Origin: Candidatus Aenigmatarchaeota archaeon
Lineage (GTDB): Archaea > Aenigmatarchaeota > Aenigmatarchaeia > CG10238-14
Direction: 5' to 3'
DNA length: 22,485 bases
NCBI GenBank assembly: GCA_044343545.1
Contig: JAWBZR010000013.1
Coordinates: 1-22,485 of the forward strand
The translations under genes and the position numbers were made by a program. Shown here one piece after another: positions 1,188 through 15,856 of the stretch. The notes beneath the pieces are model-generated. The model had not been told where the DNA came from, did not search any database, and saw nothing but the letters and a program-made list of their open reading frames with translations. Every line of letters begins with the position of its first letter. Position 1 is the first letter of the stretch.

Positions 1188-1940
1188 GTGGAACAAAAAA
1201 TTATAGGTTTATTTTCTGGTAAAGGCGGTGTCGGCAAGACAACATTAACGATTAATCTTTCGCTTGCATTGGCAGAGCTAGGAAAAAATGTTATAGCAGT
1301 CGATACAGATTTTAAAATGAGTGGTTTGGGACTGCATTTGGGTTTATACAAATTTCCAGCTACAATAGTAGATGTTTTACTTTCAGAAAAAAATGTGTTA
1401 GAAGCAATTTATGTTCACCCTACTGGAATAAGAATAATACCAGCACCTTTGTATGTAAGGGAGTTGGATACATCAAAACTTAAAGACATTTTTTCCGCGC
1501 CGATTTTTTCTCAGGGTTTTGCTCTTTTAGATACACCGCCTGGTTTAGAAAAGAACGTCATAGATGTTATGTCTGCTTGCACGTCAGCAATTATATTGAC
1601 AACACCAGATTTGCCTGCTTTGGCAAGTGCTATCAAAGTAGTTGAAAAACTTAAGGAATTAAAAATACCGATAATCGGAGTAATAATAAACATGCATACT
1701 AAGGATATGCTGAGAATAGAAGAAATAGAGGAAACACTAGAAACCAATATATTAGGCGTCATACCTTTTGATAAAAATTTTAGAAAAAGTTTGAATTTAA
1801 AAAAACCCTTGTTGCAATTAGATCCATATTGTAAAGCATCAATAGAAATTAAAAAAATAGCTGCGAAAATTGCCAATGAAAGTTTTAGAGAAGAAAAACT
1901 ATTATTTTTAAAGAGGATTTTAAGGGTGTTGAATTTATGA
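1188..1940 (+). CDS. minD: MinD/ParA-family ATPase (archaeal MinD-like)
   Basis: Deviant Walker A GKGGVGKTT, VDTD, LLDTPPG, TTPDLPA, IGVIIN, LGVIPFD. C-terminal amphipathic helix LLFLKRILRVLNL. Confidence 0.85.
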   Translation: MEQKIIGLFSGKGGVGKTTLTINLSLALAELGKNVIAVDTDFKMSGLGLHLGLYKFPATIVDVLLSEKNVLEAIYVHPTGIRIIPAPLYVRELDTSKLKDIFSAPIFSQGFALLDTPPGLEKNVIDVMSACTSAIILTTPDLPALASAIKVVEKLKELKIPIIGVIINMHTKDMLRIEEIEETLETNILGVIPFDKNFRKSLNLKKPLLQLDPYCKASIEIKKIAAKIANESFREEKLLFLKRILRVLNL

Positions 1941-4171
1941 AAAGATATTTATTAATTTTATTGATTTTTCTTCAAATTGCTTGCGCTAAACCAATAATAT
2001 CAAATTTAACAATTTACCCAGAAGAACCTTTTTTGGGCGACGAAGTTAAAATCCAATTTTCTTGTTATGAGGAAAATCAAACAATTAAAAAAATACAGGT
2101 TAATTGTTTGTCACCCATTGAAATTCCTAATTCCAGTTTTGAAATAAAAAAATTAGATAACTACCAATTTTCATTGTTGCTTGACTATCCATATTATGGT
2201 GTTTATTATTTTCAAATATTGTGTGAAAGCGATTCAATGACGGAAAATTCTACAATAGAAAATTTCAATTTTACGGTTTTCAATTTTACAGTTTATATAG
2301 ATAGCATAAAACCAGGTAAAATATATGAGGGAGATGAAGTCAAAATTTTCTTGAAGATAAAAAAGAATGATTTTGACGTCAACACTTCGTCAAACATAAA
2401 TTTTCAAATTTTCTTAAATGGAAAATCTGTAAATTTCAAGCTTCCACCATACTTTGATGCCTCTAAAGGTTGGACATTGACTTTTCAGGCACCATCTTCT
2501 GGAGAATATAAGTTAAAGATAGTGGCAAACGTTGATGAAAAAAAAGTCGAAGTGGAAAAAAACATCATAGTTCATAAATTGATAGACATATCTTTTTTAA
2601 GTATAGATAAAACAGAAATTTTACCTAATGATACGGTAACCATTAAATTTTTTATTAAAGAGAGAGATTTTAAGATAGATAATTCATCTCTTTCTACAAT
2701 AGTTTTGTTCGATTCAGAAAATATATCTTTTGATCAAAATACCTTTGATACTCTCGAGGGAACTATAGTGGAAATAAAAATGAAAGCAAAGGAAACCGTA
2801 GGAAATCATAAAATTTCAGTAAAGATTTTTTACAAGGGTAAAGAATATTTGAAGGAAATTGAAGTTGTTTTTCCAATAAAAGTTGAAGGTAATTTGAGAT
2901 TTAATGATGGTTCAAATCTTCAAGGAAAGATAAAGTTTAAAAGAAATAATTTCGAAAGAGTTATAATTACTAACTCTTCTGGATATTATAGTGGCACAAT
3001 TCCAAGAGGCAGATATGACATAGAGATAGAAACTGCCAATCATCCAAATTACCCATCTATAAAGTTGACGTTAAATAACACCGAGATAGATTCTTTTCTT
3101 GATCCGATAAAATTTGATGTTTTGAAAAATGTGAATTTAGAAGGTTTATTAATAGGCGGAGCCTACTATGTTGATGTTAGTTTAGATTCTTATGCTAACA
3201 TACAGTTGTCTTACGATCAAAAGAAGTTGTATAGAGAAAATGAAATCAAAGTTTATAGGTGCGAATATTGGAATTTTGATAAAGGTTCTTGTGATGAATG
3301 GCTTGAAGAAGTAGAAGCACTTGTAGATAAAGATAAAAACATGGTGATTCTAAATTCAAATATACCGTCAACTTTTATAATTTCTTGCAGAAAGAAACTC
3401 GAGTTGAAAGCTTTTTCTGATAAAAAAGATTATCATATGGGTGATGTCATCAACGTATACGGCTATGTTCAAGATGAAGATGGAAATTACATAGCTGATG
3501 CCAATGTCTCTATAAGAACCATAGATGTTAACAAATTTACAACAACAGATAAAAATGGGTATTTTTCTTCCCAGTTTTTGGCGCCAGACAAAGAGGGAAA
3601 ATTTAAAATAGATATAATTGCACAAAAGTCAAGTTACATAGAAGATAAAACCTCTTTGGAAATAAATGTCACAAAAATCAAGAAAATATTGATATTTGTC
3701 GAAGATACTATCAAAGTCTATCCAGGCAATATTACAATACCTTTAAGATTGGTTAATGTTGGGCAAGCGGATGTTGATTCATGTGTCATAAATGTTTCTG
3801 GTTTACCGTCAGATTTTAAGGTTTTAAACAATAAAGAAGAAATTGAAATAAAAAAAGGTGAAGAAAGATACTCGCCTATATCTATTTTCACGCCAAATAA
3901 CATTACACCTTCCGATTATATAATAAAAATTACATCTAATTGCGATGGTTTTATTGCAGAGAAACAGTTGCTTTTAATAGTAGAAAATGAACAAAAAATG
4001 CCAACAACGAAAATTGTTTTGCCTCAAGTCAATTTAAAAATTATGTTAACATTTTTTGTTTGTTTTTTGATAATTTTGTTAGCCTTTATATTGAAGAAAT
4101 ATAAAACAAAAAACCAAAACGATTCAATTCTTAAACAAATAAAAGACGAAATAAAAAAAGATTTAAACTAA
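1937..4171 (+). CDS. Large cell-surface protein with tandem Ig-like/carboxypeptidase-regulatory-like domains and a C-terminal TM anchor
   Basis: Signal peptide MKRYLLILLIFLQIACA, beta-rich repeats (TNSSGYYS, TDKNGYFS, LVNVGQAD), CxxWxFxxxxC motif, C-terminal TM followed by a Lys-rich tail. ATGA overlap with minD. Confidence 0.75.
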   Translation: MKRYLLILLIFLQIACAKPIISNLTIYPEEPFLGDEVKIQFSCYEENQTIKKIQVNCLSPIEIPNSSFEIKKLDNYQFSLLLDYPYYGVYYFQILCESDSMTENSTIENFNFTVFNFTVYIDSIKPGKIYEGDEVKIFLKIKKNDFDVNTSSNINFQIFLNGKSVNFKLPPYFDASKGWTLTFQAPSSGEYKLKIVANVDEKKVEVEKNIIVHKLIDISFLSIDKTEILPNDTVTIKFFIKERDFKIDNSSLSTIVLFDSENISFDQNTFDTLEGTIVEIKMKAKETVGNHKISVKIFYKGKEYLKEIEVVFPIKVEGNLRFNDGSNLQGKIKFKRNNFERVIITNSSGYYSGTIPRGRYDIEIETANHPNYPSIKLTLNNTEIDSFLDPIKFDVLKNVNLEGLLIGGAYYVDVSLDSYANIQLSYDQKKLYRENEIKVYRCEYWNFDKGSCDEWLEEVEALVDKDKNMVILNSNIPSTFIISCRKKLELKAFSDKKDYHMGDVINVYGYVQDEDGNYIADANVSIRTIDVNKFTTTDKNGYFSSQFLAPDKEGKFKIDIIAQKSSYIEDKTSLEINVTKIKKILIFVEDTIKVYPGNITIPLRLVNVGQADVDSCVINVSGLPSDFKVLNNKEEIEIKKGEERYSPISIFTPNNITPSDYIIKITSNCDGFIAEKQLLLIVENEQKMPTTKIVLPQVNLKIMLTFFVCFLIILLAFILKKYKTKNQNDSILKQIKDEIKKDLN

Positions 4172-6565: not shown

Positions 6566-6664
6566 TTACCAGTCTTCATCATCGAACTCTTCATCGTAGT
6601 CTTCATCTTCCCAGTCTTCATCATCTTCCCAGTCTTCTTCTTCGTCCCTTCTTGTTATGTACAA
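6566..6664 (-). CDS. 32-aa hyper-acidic microprotein MYITRRDEEEDWEDDEDWEDEDYDEEFDDEDW (not in ORF track)
   Basis: TTG start 6 nt after a GAGGTG RBS (6671-6676), TATA box TTTAAATA (6707-6714), clean 33-codon frame, oligo-T tract after the stop. Confidence 0.75.
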   Translation of the reverse strand: MYITRRDEEEDWEDDEDWEDEDYDEEFDDEDW

Positions 6665-6706
6665 TTGTTTCACCTCTGAATATTCATTTATTCTATTGGG
6701 TAAAAG

Positions 6707-6778: not shown

Positions 6779-7078
6779 ATGAAAATAACAAAGCATCAAA
6801 TATTGGAAAAATTAAGAGAATGTTACGATCCGGAAATACCTATAAATATAGTAGATTTAGGCCTGGTTTATGAAGTGAAAATAAAAAAGAAAGATGTTTA
6901 TGTTAAGTTGGTTTTGACATCATTGGGTTGCCCGTTGGGTTTTTACATTACAGAGGAAGTTAAGAGAAAGATAAAAGAAATAGATGGAGTAAATGATGTA
7001 TTAGTAGAAATAGATTTTGATAAAACATGGACACCAGATAGAATGTCAAAAAAGGCTAGAGAAATTTTAGGCATTTAA
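6779..7078 (+). CDS. DUF59 (SufT/PaaD/Cia2-like) metal-sulfur cluster assembly factor
   Basis: DPEIPINIVDLGLVY, LTSLGCP and WTPDRMS motifs. Confidence 0.9.
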   Translation: MKITKHQILEKLRECYDPEIPINIVDLGLVYEVKIKKKDVYVKLVLTSLGCPLGFYITEEVKRKIKEIDGVNDVLVEIDFDKTWTPDRMSKKAREILGI

Positions 7079-7219
7079 CTTTTCTTCCATTTCTTTGGTT
7101 TCTTTCAAAAACCTTTCAATAACCCTTGGTAGATCTTTTTCTTCAACTCTAAAAATTTCTGCGATTTTTTTCAAAATTTCTTCCTTTTTCTTTAATTCTT
7201 TCCATTCTTCCATGTTCAT
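7067..7219 (-). CDS. 50-aa helical protein resembling the AlaRS helix-loop-helix dimerisation segment (not in ORF track)
   Basis: MNMEEWKELKKKEEILKKIAEIFRVEEKDLPRVIERFLKETKEMEEKLNA. GAGGTG RBS at 7230-7235. Lies 33 nt downstream of aMBF1 on the same strand. Confidence 0.7.
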   Translation of the reverse strand: MNMEEWKELKKKEEILKKIAEIFRVEEKDLPRVIERFLKETKEMEEKLNA

Positions 7220-7252
7220 ATAAAATCTACACCTCAAACAAATATTTTAAAT

Positions 7253-13516: not shown

Positions 13517-15856
13517 ATGCCTCTCGATAAAAAGGCTTTAATGAAAAAATTTCAATCTCAACCAGAAAAATATTGGAAAGTCAATCTCTTTGATGAAAAA
13601 GGTTTTGTAAGAAAAAAGTGCTCTAGCTGTGGAAAATATTTTTGGACATTAGATCCAGAGAGAGAAAAGTGCGATGACCAGCCATGCCGTTTTTATGAAT
13701 TTATAGACAATCCACCCACTAAAAAAAGGTTTGATTACGTTGAAACATGGAAAGTTATGGAAAAATTTTTTGTTAAAGAAGGACATACTTCGCTTAGACG
13801 TTACCCAGTTGTCTGTAGATGGTATCCTCTTTATTTTAACATCGCTTCCATCATAAATTTTTATAGAATAGACAGTGGTAAATTGGTTTTCGAATTCCCA
13901 GCCAATCCAGTGATAGTTCCACAATTTTGTTTAAGATTCAATGACATTCCTAATGTTGGTGTAACTGGCAAACACTTTACTTGTTTTAACATGGTCGGCC
14001 AGGCATGTTTTTTCGATGGAAAGCAAGGATATTGGAAAGATAGATGCATAGAGCTTGATTTCAAACTTTTAACAAAAGAATTTGATATACCTGAAAAAGA
14101 AATCATATTCATAGAAGATATGTGGGTAGGTCCATCAGCTTTTGGACCGTCTTTAGAATTTTATTGTCGTGGCCTTGAGTTGGGGAATGCAGTATTTACA
14201 GAATTTGTTGGCACGATAGATAATTACAAAGAAATGGAGCCAAAAGTAATAGACATGGGAGCTGGTTTGGAAAGGTTTGCTTGGATTACAAACGGAACGC
14301 CAACAGCGTACGATGTAACATTCGAGCCAGTGATAAAATACATGCTAAAGCAGTCAGGATTATCAGCCGATTTCGATTTCTTCCAAAGGTATTCTAGGTT
14401 GGCTGGTTCTTTGAATATAGAAGAAGTAGGTGACTTGAAAAAAGCAAGAGTAAAGATAGCAAAACAATTGGGTCTAAGTGTTGAAAAGCTTATAGAAAAG
14501 GTGAGACCTTTTGAAGCAATTTATGCTATTGCCGACCACACGCGTGCCTTAACATTTGCAATTTCTGATGGTGCTTTGCCAAGTAATGTAGGTGGTGGTT
14601 ACAATTTGAGAATAATATTGAGAAGAGTTTTTTCGTTTTTAGATGAACTAAAACTGGATATGGATTTAATAAAAATTTGTGAGTTGCATGCAAAACATTT
14701 GGAATATTTTTCTCCAGAATTGAAGGATCATATAAACGAAATAAATGTGATCTTCGATGTTGAAAGAAAAAGATATAATACAAGCAAAGCGAGAGCTGAA
14801 AAGATTGTTCAAGAAATTTTAGATAAGGGTGAAGAAATAAATGAAGAGAAGCTTGTCACACTATATGATTCAGAGGGAATAACACCAGAGCTTTTGCTGC
14901 AATATAAACCAGACCTCAAGATACCTGAAGATTTTTATTCCAAAGTTACTGCGAGACATATGAAAGAGGAAGAGCCTGTTAAGATGCAAGATATTGACAT
15001 TTCTGGTTTGCCTCCAACTCTTGCATTATATTATGATGACGAAAAAAAGATGGAATTTAAAGCCAAGGTATTAAAAGTAATAAATAATCAGTGGGTTGTG
15101 CTCGACAAAACATATTTCTATCCGGAGAGTGGCGGGCAAAAGGCAGATATGGGATTTATAGACGGACAGCCAGTAATCGATGTACAAAAAATAGGAAATG
15201 TTATTTTGCATAAAGTTGTTGGAAGTGTAGAAGAAGGTAGAGAGGTTGAATGTAAAATAAATGCTTTTAGAAGGCAAACACATACGCGTCATCACACAGC
15301 GACTCATATAGTATTCATTGCCGCTAAGCAAGTTTTAGGTTCTTGGGTGTGGCAGCATGGTGCTGAAAAAACAACTGAAAAAGCTAGAATAGACATAACA
15401 CATTTTGAGAATCTGACAGAAGAGCAAATTAAAGAGATAGAGAGAATTGCAAATGAAATAGTTGATAAAAATTTGCCAGTGAAGAAAGAATGGTATGATA
15501 GAAATGATGCTGAAAATAAATTTGGTTTTACCATATATCAAGGTGGTTACGTTCCAAGTAAAAAAGTGAGAATAGTGTCCATAGGCAATTTAAACTCTCA
15601 AGCTTGCGGAGGTACACATGTGGATAGAACAAGAGAAGTAGGTTATATAACTATAATAAAAACCAAAAGAATCCAAGACGGTGTTGTAAGGATAGAATTT
15701 TGCTCTGGCGAAGTTGCGGAAAAATACCTAAGGGAAAAGGCCGATTTGCTGGATCAAGTTTTACGAATTTTAAATGCAAAGTTAGATAATGCTATAGAAG
15801 AAGCCAGCAAGCTGTTTGCTAGATGGAAGGAGTTAAGGAAGAGGATAAAGAAATGA
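13517..15856 (+). CDS. alaS: Alanine--tRNA ligase, archaeal type, lacking the C-terminal globular C-Ala (DHHA1) domain
   Basis: N-terminal CxxC...FWT, RYPVV, QFCLRFND, GLELGNAVF, IDMGAGLERF, IADHTR, editing HHTATH and CGGTH, IQDGVVRIEF. Ends about 45 aa later. ATG 13517. Confidence 0.95.
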   Translation: MPLDKKALMKKFQSQPEKYWKVNLFDEKGFVRKKCSSCGKYFWTLDPEREKCDDQPCRFYEFIDNPPTKKRFDYVETWKVMEKFFVKEGHTSLRRYPVVCRWYPLYFNIASIINFYRIDSGKLVFEFPANPVIVPQFCLRFNDIPNVGVTGKHFTCFNMVGQACFFDGKQGYWKDRCIELDFKLLTKEFDIPEKEIIFIEDMWVGPSAFGPSLEFYCRGLELGNAVFTEFVGTIDNYKEMEPKVIDMGAGLERFAWITNGTPTAYDVTFEPVIKYMLKQSGLSADFDFFQRYSRLAGSLNIEEVGDLKKARVKIAKQLGLSVEKLIEKVRPFEAIYAIADHTRALTFAISDGALPSNVGGGYNLRIILRRVFSFLDELKLDMDLIKICELHAKHLEYFSPELKDHINEINVIFDVERKRYNTSKARAEKIVQEILDKGEEINEEKLVTLYDSEGITPELLLQYKPDLKIPEDFYSKVTARHMKEEEPVKMQDIDISGLPPTLALYYDDEKKMEFKAKVLKVINNQWVVLDKTYFYPESGGQKADMGFIDGQPVIDVQKIGNVILHKVVGSVEEGREVECKINAFRRQTHTRHHTATHIVFIAAKQVLGSWVWQHGAEKTTEKARIDITHFENLTEEQIKEIERIANEIVDKNLPVKKEWYDRNDAENKFGFTIYQGGYVPSKKVRIVSIGNLNSQACGGTHVDRTREVGYITIIKTKRIQDGVVRIEFCSGEVAEKYLREKADLLDQVLRILNAKLDNAIEEASKLFARWKELRKRIKK

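Follow-up and report, generated by a model that had tools for sequence, protein, structure and literature searches.

A 50-residue paralogue of the dimer-zipper hairpin of archaeal alanyl-tRNA synthetase, encoded as its own gene in Aenigmarchaeota, as a probable subunit of the enzyme

Alanyl-tRNA synthetase (AlaRS) is described in reviews as an enzyme that keeps one prototype architecture throughout biology, and the passages concerned tell of an existing C-Ala domain that was remodeled with no parts added (PMC8583063, PMC8887476). In A. fulgidus AlaRS, as the relevant sections of the cited papers have it, dimerisation takes place via the helical subdomain of C-Ala, and the globular subdomain presents the tRNA with a basic surface (PMC8583063, PMC10485164). 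The helix-loop-helix (HLH) of that helical subdomain lies within an enzyme of 906 residues, ahead of the globular subdomain, and its partner is the identical HLH in the other subunit of the dimer. The mitochondrial AlaRS of C. elegans keeps a residual C-Ala of about 54 residues, comprising the first two helices (PMC8887476, PMC10485164); AlaRS of Nanoarchaeum equitans, with its α and β, is encoded by more than one gene and the products must assemble (PMC11392972, PMC6349945); and the AlaXp editing proteins, some of which are fused to a C-Ala homologue, have genes of their own that go back to the C-terminal half of AlaRS (PMC3158927), all as far as the cited sections tell. A full-text literature search found no description of a free-standing HLH peptide of AlaRS. 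Here, we describe such a peptide, how it is related to AlaRS, where its gene is found and what it probably does.

The locus lies in a window of 22,485 nucleotides, that is, the whole stretch of DNA analysed, with a G+C content of about 30%, from an Aenigmatarchaeota assembly of 651 kb in 22 contigs that is about 90% complete. The features discussed below are collected in Table 1.

Table 1. Positions of the features of the window that bear on the microprotein and on AlaRS
Feature	Position	Strand	Remarks
FeS_assembly_P gene	6779..7078	+	convergent; overlapped by 12 nt by the 3' end of the microprotein gene
Microprotein gene (HLH2)	7067..7219	-	50 codons plus stop; second possible start at 7213
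Shine-Dalgarno-like GAGGTG	7230..7235	-	10 nt upstream of the microprotein ATG; read from the sequence
A/T-rich TATA-like box TTTAAAATATTT	7240..7251	-	adjoins the mbf1 stop
MBF1-like gene, 145 aa	7253..7690	-	directly upstream of the microprotein gene; Pfam HTH_3, E = 9.1e-7
alaS, archaeal-type AlaRS, 781 aa	13511..15856	+	Pfam tRNA-synt_2c, tRNA_SAD
HLH1, AlaRS residues 737-781	15719..15853	+	diverged own HLH tail, aligns to the A. fulgidus HLH; predicted docking site

An earlier note on this DNA, made from its letters alone, had pointed out a free-standing 50-aa ORF, and the ORF is indeed there on the minus strand with the quoted core, its own start and its own stop, in the gap between the MBF1-like gene and the convergent FeS_assembly_P gene. 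It starts with the ATG at 7219-7217, with an in-frame alternative ATG at 7213-7211; the 48-aa version beginning at the latter is entry P0003 in the protein collection. The product is short, of low complexity and rich in K and E, and a Pfam search assigned it to no family at E ≤ 0.01. The 145-aa gene, whose stop is 33 nt from the start of the ORF, is called MBF1-like because its translation combines CxxC...CxxC cysteines near the N-terminus with the HTH_3 domain. As to the ribosome-binding site proposed in the same note, the GAGGTG motif is present at its place, but its use is uncertain because it is not kept in the other five mbf1-linked loci compared. The A/T-rich box, so labelled for its likeness to the archaeal TATA consensus, may be a putative promoter of the microprotein gene itself; boxes of the TTAAAATA type occur at about the same place, around the mbf1 stop, in three other loci of the window's genus. 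The one RNA-library run that has words in common with the region (X8, word share 0.07) covers 6603-6646 and 6817-7037, the latter a part of the FeS gene, with the ORF outside; since all the runs are contigs, it is uninformative about expression of the ORF either way.

Some further observations on the window may be recorded here. In the spacer between a MiaB-like gene and the FeS_assembly_P gene, at 6566-6673 on the minus strand, a 35-codon ORF with GAGGTG at its start would yield a peptide of extreme acidity in which D/E-W motifs are repeated and which may be another microprotein or a product of chance. At 1937-4171 on the plus strand, beside a ParA/NUBPL-type ATPase, is encoded a 744-aa protein with CarboxypepD_reg and weak MG2/Ig-like matches, probably a large surface protein. 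DNA of this stretch is contained in runs X1-X6, which belong to two studies of hot springs metagenomes, with word shares of 0.25-1.00; one of them may be the source sample, and they give weak support for a hot-spring habitat.

Which known protein does the peptide resemble? In the PDB, its best natural match is A. fulgidus AlaRS (2zvf, E = 0.044, 17.5 bits; 3wqy, E = 0.25), residues 745-782 of which align to residues 10-47 of the peptide; a designed repeat protein, 7rdr, outscores AlaRS via eight weak repeats only, of about 8 bits each. A profile made from five microproteins finds the post-editing HLH with far better values (2zvf, E = 1.8e-5; residues 745-779 of 3wqy, E = 7.7e-4), and it matches the full-length Aenigmarchaeota AlaRS frames L029 and L030 with E of about 1e-10 to 1e-11. 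The archaeal AlaRS pattern that the earlier note had given is verified by the A. fulgidus alignment, and its assignment of the peptide to the helices after the editing domain agrees with the profile result. It had also held that the peptide fits this pattern better than the window's own AlaRS tail does; searched alone, that tail reaches 2zvf at E = 8.5 (10.4 bits), worse than the peptide, and the microprotein profile did not detect it in a genome-wide scan at E ≤ 10. A word-index search for longer relatives of the peptide gave none among 63 candidates at E ≤ 1, the method being too insensitive for a query of 50 residues.

As judged from these alignments, the microprotein is homologous to the post-editing HLH of archaeal AlaRS. 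We call the tail of AlaRS itself HLH1 and the microprotein HLH2; HLH2 is a paralogue of the archaeal AlaRS dimer-zipper HLH that is encoded as its own gene. In alignments of genomes having the microprotein, the second helix of HLH1 carries 'LF-x-x-WK' and the microprotein keeps the canonical 'LP-R/K-x-x-x-RF' part. HLH1 and HLH2 therefore look like a pair of paralogues, each of which would have retained half of the ancestral features.

The AlaRS of the window aligns to residues 4-784 of the 906 residues of 3wqy. Thus, it ends after the HLH, without the globular C-Ala subdomain, and the truncation at this segment had been seen correctly in the earlier note. The ORF of the microprotein similarly ends after helix 2, with no globular GG-motif (DHHA1-like) subdomain following, and no detached globular C-Ala domain was found in the 651-kb genome, in which the sole DHHA1 match is a 375-aa protein whose motif in translation we take to be of the DHH type. 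Is the missing subdomain accounted for by an unusual substrate? Two tRNA(Ala) genes, with GGC and CGC anticodons (G000:C1:65325-65399 and C11:28761-28832), are among the only 27 tRNAs that aragorn found in the assembly, and both look like canonical tRNA(Ala) genes: G3:U70 is present and the T-arm is normal. An aberrant tRNA thus does not account for the missing globular subdomain.

Elsewhere, the counterpart of the microprotein is a segment of single-chain AlaRS, and this in two forms, with 11 tandem and 5 nested enzymes. The tandem form was reached from P0051 and P0064, which look like C-terminal fragments of AlaRS in which a linker joins HLH1 to HLH2. When P0064 was used as the query, 11 full AlaRS of 833-866 aa were obtained, covering 93-98% of P0064, one of them recorded as Candidatus Woesearchaeota; in their last 150 residues, HLH1 is followed by a linker rich in K and then by an HLH2 whose end coincides with that of the microprotein, and a globular subdomain is absent. 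The nested form is seen in Aenigmarchaeota AlaRS frames of 899-983 aa (L031, L032, L037, L038 and L039, the 899-aa frame of L032 being cut by the contig end), in which a hairpin like HLH2 is placed between the first post-editing helix and the canonical second zipper helix; in those frames that reach their end, the globular subdomain follows the second zipper helix. The C-terminal 479 residues of L037 were modeled with AlphaFold (mean pLDDT 92.6, pTM 0.80). The model has helices at 247-269, 272-279, 286-296, 301-329, 334-347 and 353-387, and the microprotein-homologous hairpin corresponds to 286-296 and 301-329.

In two genomes with canonical AlaRS of the 896-aa type (L029 and L030), the only match is the one within the enzyme. 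Four genomes have a full-length AlaRS, with both the HLH and the GG-motif globular subdomain, plus the small gene downstream (L033, of the same order, L040, L041 and L042). The idea that the microprotein compensates for the truncation of AlaRS was therefore rejected, and with it goes the earlier suggestion of a module that caps a truncated AlaRS. Separately, P0049, a metagenomic protein of 172 aa that is a distant relative, combines a free HLH with a globular part resembling DHHA1 (E = 1e-4, which does not reach the Pfam cut-off); from its sequence it is possibly a whole detached C-Ala domain, intermediate between the canonical and the microprotein forms.

Where, then, does the gene stand in related genomes? 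Of 61 genomes from the same order, 50 contain a small-frame homologue (51 show a match at E ≤ 0.01, the sole match of G059 being in a 642-aa frame). When the coordinates of microprotein and AlaRS matches were combined for the 50 genomes with a small-frame copy, the gene was found on the same strand no more than 60 nt downstream of the alaS match in 25 of them, and 170-3658 nt downstream in 12; in 6 it is on the same contig and the opposite strand, 5.2-8.5 kb from alaS, in another 6 it is on a different contig, and one genome (G052) has the microprotein without any AlaRS match. At adjacent-class loci (L003, L006, L013, L019, L027, L034 and L036), the start codon overlaps the alaS stop or sits 2-7 nt beyond it, and Shine-Dalgarno-like purine runs precede it. 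Linkage to alaS is ancestral, with the alaS operon as the common arrangement. In the window, the microprotein gene and alaS are on opposite strands, about 6.3 kb apart, and the order from mbf1 to microprotein also occurs in G001, G003, G004, G011 and G018. The six opposite-strand genomes belong to the window's genus and one other, and in all six the gene is behind mbf1. So, of the link with mbf1 that the earlier note had drawn, the direct adjacency stands, but it is a local matter of 6 of the 50 genomes in two genera; because the alaS operon is the common arrangement, the position behind mbf1 is a derived, local rearrangement. As the gene has moved about 6.3 kb away from alaS in the window's genus, its product must act in trans there.

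Can the two hairpins bind each other? The complex was modeled from AlaRS residues 495-781 (alignment of 12 rows) and the microprotein (alignment of 40 rows), and ipSAE was 0.82, 0.82 and 0.81 against 0.00 for the best of three controls, although this score may partly reflect likeness rather than specific binding, since the A. fulgidus HLH homodimer is a solved structure. Of 157 solved complexes, 116 attain the ipSAE mark, as do 2 of 215 mismatched pairs; these counts hold only roughly here, as own alignments were supplied. The partner has a pLDDT of 90-91, and at least 98% of the contacts are shared between runs. In the model, fragment residues 243-285, which are AlaRS 737-779 (HLH1), face microprotein residues 1-48, with interface residues at every 3-4 positions along the latter; residues 154, 158, 218 and 220 of the fragment, in the editing domain, also take part. 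The closest pairs of fragment and microprotein residues are 246-9, 253-16 and 256-19, so that the first helices would lie parallel.

Covariation in 32 paired sequences points in the same direction at one position. All 8 genomes with F at microprotein residue 23, which come from two clades (four are of the window's genus, the other four of another family), have a small residue (A, C or S) at AlaRS 765, and in 22 of the 24 others L, I or V at residue 23 goes with V or I at AlaRS 765; the model predicts that AlaRS 765 touches microprotein residues 19 and 22. This is only suggestive, because it was noticed after the model and because the pair ranks 54 among 3161 column pairs by MI-APC over the 32 sequence pairs, where editing-domain columns score as high. 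The mutual-information scan as a whole is unusable as proof, since its top scores mix interface and editing-domain columns, and relatedness dominates.

The microprotein most likely binds HLH1 of AlaRS as a stoichiometric subunit of 50 residues, a reading to which we give a probability of roughly 70%. HLH2 would bind HLH1 (AlaRS residues 737-781) with helix 1 parallel to helix 1, so that the hairpins form a four-helix bundle, and would thereby occupy or complete the surface that is used for homodimerisation in other archaeal AlaRSs. It would be made in roughly equal amounts with AlaRS, and the bundle might either replace the homodimer, giving a monomeric 'pseudo-dimer', or reinforce a 2:2 dimer. 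Physical binding of HLH1 and HLH2 is predicted by the model, and a 1:1 stoichiometry is suggested by the overlaps of start and stop codons; a constitutive 1:1 partner is what one would expect of a gene that abuts or overlaps the alaS stop in half of the 50 genomes and is fused in cis elsewhere. Since the microprotein has a net charge of about -1 and the tail of AlaRS ends in a basic run, a structural role is to be expected rather than nucleic-acid binding. The proposal of the earlier note that the peptide heterodimerises with the AlaRS tail is thus backed by gene order, natural fusions, co-occurrence (see below) and, as a prediction, by the complex model with its ipSAE of 0.82. On the opposite side stand the 12 of 50 genomes in which the gene is off the alaS strand or contig.

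An Id-type protein is an HLH by itself, which forms a pair with that of some larger protein, and by analogy only the microprotein might be a regulator of variable level that titrates the tail of AlaRS, breaks or prevents homodimers and so tunes charging. Such a regulator would profit from the predicted docking on the AlaRS HLH, a dimer zipper in A. fulgidus according to the cited sections (PMC8583063, PMC10485164), and from the situation in the window's genus, in which the gene is uncoupled from alaS and may have a TATA-like box of its own. Against this, the tight spacing behind the alaS stop in 25 of 50 genomes, with Shine-Dalgarno-like motifs upstream, suggests equimolar synthesis, and in the 16 AlaRS proteins that have the module fused in cis, titration is impossible. 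Neither does the peptide match any HLH transcription-factor family in Pfam; it has no sequence relation to Id-type or bHLH proteins, and gene order and fusions argue for a structural subunit. The dominant-negative role of the Id type suggested earlier fits these data poorly, and because the microprotein also accompanies full-length AlaRS and its mbf1 neighbourhood is a local rearrangement, we consider a regulator of this kind unlikely.

Slightly less likely still is an AlaRS-derived but independent product, a generic coiled-coil adaptor for MBF1, the ribosome, uracil-DNA glycosylase (UDG) or AlaX, with the linkage to alaS recording only its origin. The gene is behind mbf1 in 6 genomes and on another contig in 6, its neighbour in G060 is UDG, and in G052 it is joined to a UDG domain in one frame, all of which such an adaptor would explain; however, each alternative neighbour is confined to one or two genera, AlaRS fusions occur in two phyla, and none of the 7 genomes that lack an HLH-bearing AlaRS has the small gene. 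An archaeal-type AlaRS with HLH was found in 53 of the 61 genomes, and 49 of these 53 have the microprotein, the others being G002, G015, G026 and G050 (74-94% complete); the genus-mates of G026 and G050 have no more than weak microprotein matches. In the 7 genomes having no archaeal-type AlaRS match (G023, G035, G043, G049, G051, G057 and G059), there is no small-frame microprotein at all. As a PF01411 search and inspection of frame ends revealed, AlaRS in 5 of these 7 is about 595-606 aa long and comes to its end directly behind the editing domain, without HLH. Four of the 7 belong to genus g20, whose members G037 and G053 have both the HLH-bearing AlaRS and the microprotein. This co-occurrence is given as a pattern and with no statistic, because kin are not independent. 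The stoichiometric AlaRS subunit proposed above accords with it.

It is to be noted that the genomes in question show some peculiarities of their own. The AlaRS of about 595-606 aa (L044-L048, in G035, G023, G057, G049 and G043, respectively) match PF01411 at E of about 1e-143 and have no C-Ala at all. In one genus, 4 of 6 sampled members have no archaeal-type AlaRS, and alaS looks to have been replaced within the order. The AlaRS frame of G053 (L014, G053:C5) is 996 aa long with about 175 extra residues between the positions equivalent to 571 and 573 of the window's AlaRS, one match ending at 313 and the next starting at 839; the extra part could be an intein or an insertion domain. In G060, the microprotein gene lies directly upstream of the uracil-DNA glycosylase gene (PF03167; L020:1501-1677 and 1646-2206, plus strand), and in G052, which is of the same genus and has no AlaRS match, microprotein and UDG domain share one 238-aa frame (L035:700-1413, minus strand; also P0015), either a fusion or a sequencing frameshift.

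The microprotein ORF is a real gene, conserved far more than chance would allow, and the conservation and purifying selection on which the earlier note had made its claim depend were both found. A HMMER scan of 1.84 billion representative proteins gave 61 clusters (50% identity) at E ≤ 1e-3 and 23 at E ≤ 1e-10, and 56 of the 61 clusters are 36-75 aa long. Four other proteins of 50-53 aa, 60-84% identical to the microprotein, came from a word search; orthologues are named 'hypothetical protein' by NCBI, and two of the word-search relatives are 'alanyl-tRNA synthetase' at JGI. Among 18 codon-aligned orthologues, pN is lower than pS in 153 of 153 pairs (median pN 0.25, pS 0.81), and for the 6 pairs, among 14 listed, that allow dS to be estimated, dN/dS lies at 0.05-0.24, synonymous sites being saturated otherwise. 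In 40 aligned sequences, K12 and F37 are invariant, and L9, L16, V25, R36, E40 and E43 are conserved in at least 90%. A short, K/E-rich sequence of low complexity and no Pfam family might be taken for what a duplication of part of alaS at its 3' end left behind, a relic without function or a chance ORF; this reading is close to refuted by the intact frames in those 50 genomes, by the selection at saturated synonymous sites and by the two invariant residues.

A broader reading, which we hold tentatively and would not bet on, is that in at least two phyla of DPANN archaea the zipper by which AlaRS, a class II synthetase, forms homodimers became a hetero- or pseudo-dimeric four-helix bundle of HLH1 on the enzyme and a duplicated HLH2, the latter in cis in Woesearchaeota and some Aenigmarchaeota, or in trans as an obligate subunit of 50 residues in most Aenigmarchaeota. 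If this were true, AlaRS would work as a monomer plus the microprotein, even after losing the globular subdomain that binds the tRNA elbow, and HLH2 would be, to our knowledge, the smallest synthetase subunit; the two pieces of the split N. equitans AlaRS, for their part, are reportedly both large. It would, moreover, be a case from nature in which a paralogue of a fragment has taken over the interface of a homomer.

In this lineage, all that is left of C-Ala on the enzyme is a hairpin, of which another copy is encoded, as a conserved microprotein, by a gene of its own. Should the two bind each other, AlaRS would have a heteromeric form not known before, and the enzymes described here would make up a natural series in which to study the change from homodimer to heteromer, from the canonical form through the nested and the tandem-fused ones to those with the hairpin split off, either beside alaS or at a new site. 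Genes of 50 codons would then be shown to be able to encode parts that core enzymes of translation cannot do without in reduced genomes. The findings also raise the question of how a tRNA(Ala) of canonical L shape is bound by AlaRSs that have lost the globular subdomain.

How does the arrangement compare with the known systems? The residual C-Ala of the C. elegans mitochondrial AlaRS is like the AlaRS tail of the window, whereas the cited sections describe no separate partner peptide and an unusual mitochondrial tRNA, in contrast to the canonical-looking tRNA(Ala) genes here (PMC8887476). The microprotein shares with AlaXp, as far as the cited part goes, its being an autonomous gene from the C-terminal half of AlaRS, but AlaXp carries the catalytic editing domain and the microprotein is a zipper hairpin only, with no catalytic domain (PMC3158927). 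N. equitans, which is also a member of DPANN, likewise has AlaRS encoded by more than one gene, but its split yields two AlaRS subunits, according to the passages cited, whereas here only a duplicated hairpin of 50 residues is detached and the enzyme keeps its own copy (PMC11392972). Closest is the helical subdomain of A. fulgidus C-Ala (2zvf, 3wqy): there is sequence homology over residues 745-782, and the models predict for the microprotein, too, a helix-loop-helix that pairs with a second HLH. Unlike the A. fulgidus HLH, the microprotein is a separate product of 50 residues, and its predicted partner is the diverged, paralogous HLH of a 781-aa AlaRS.
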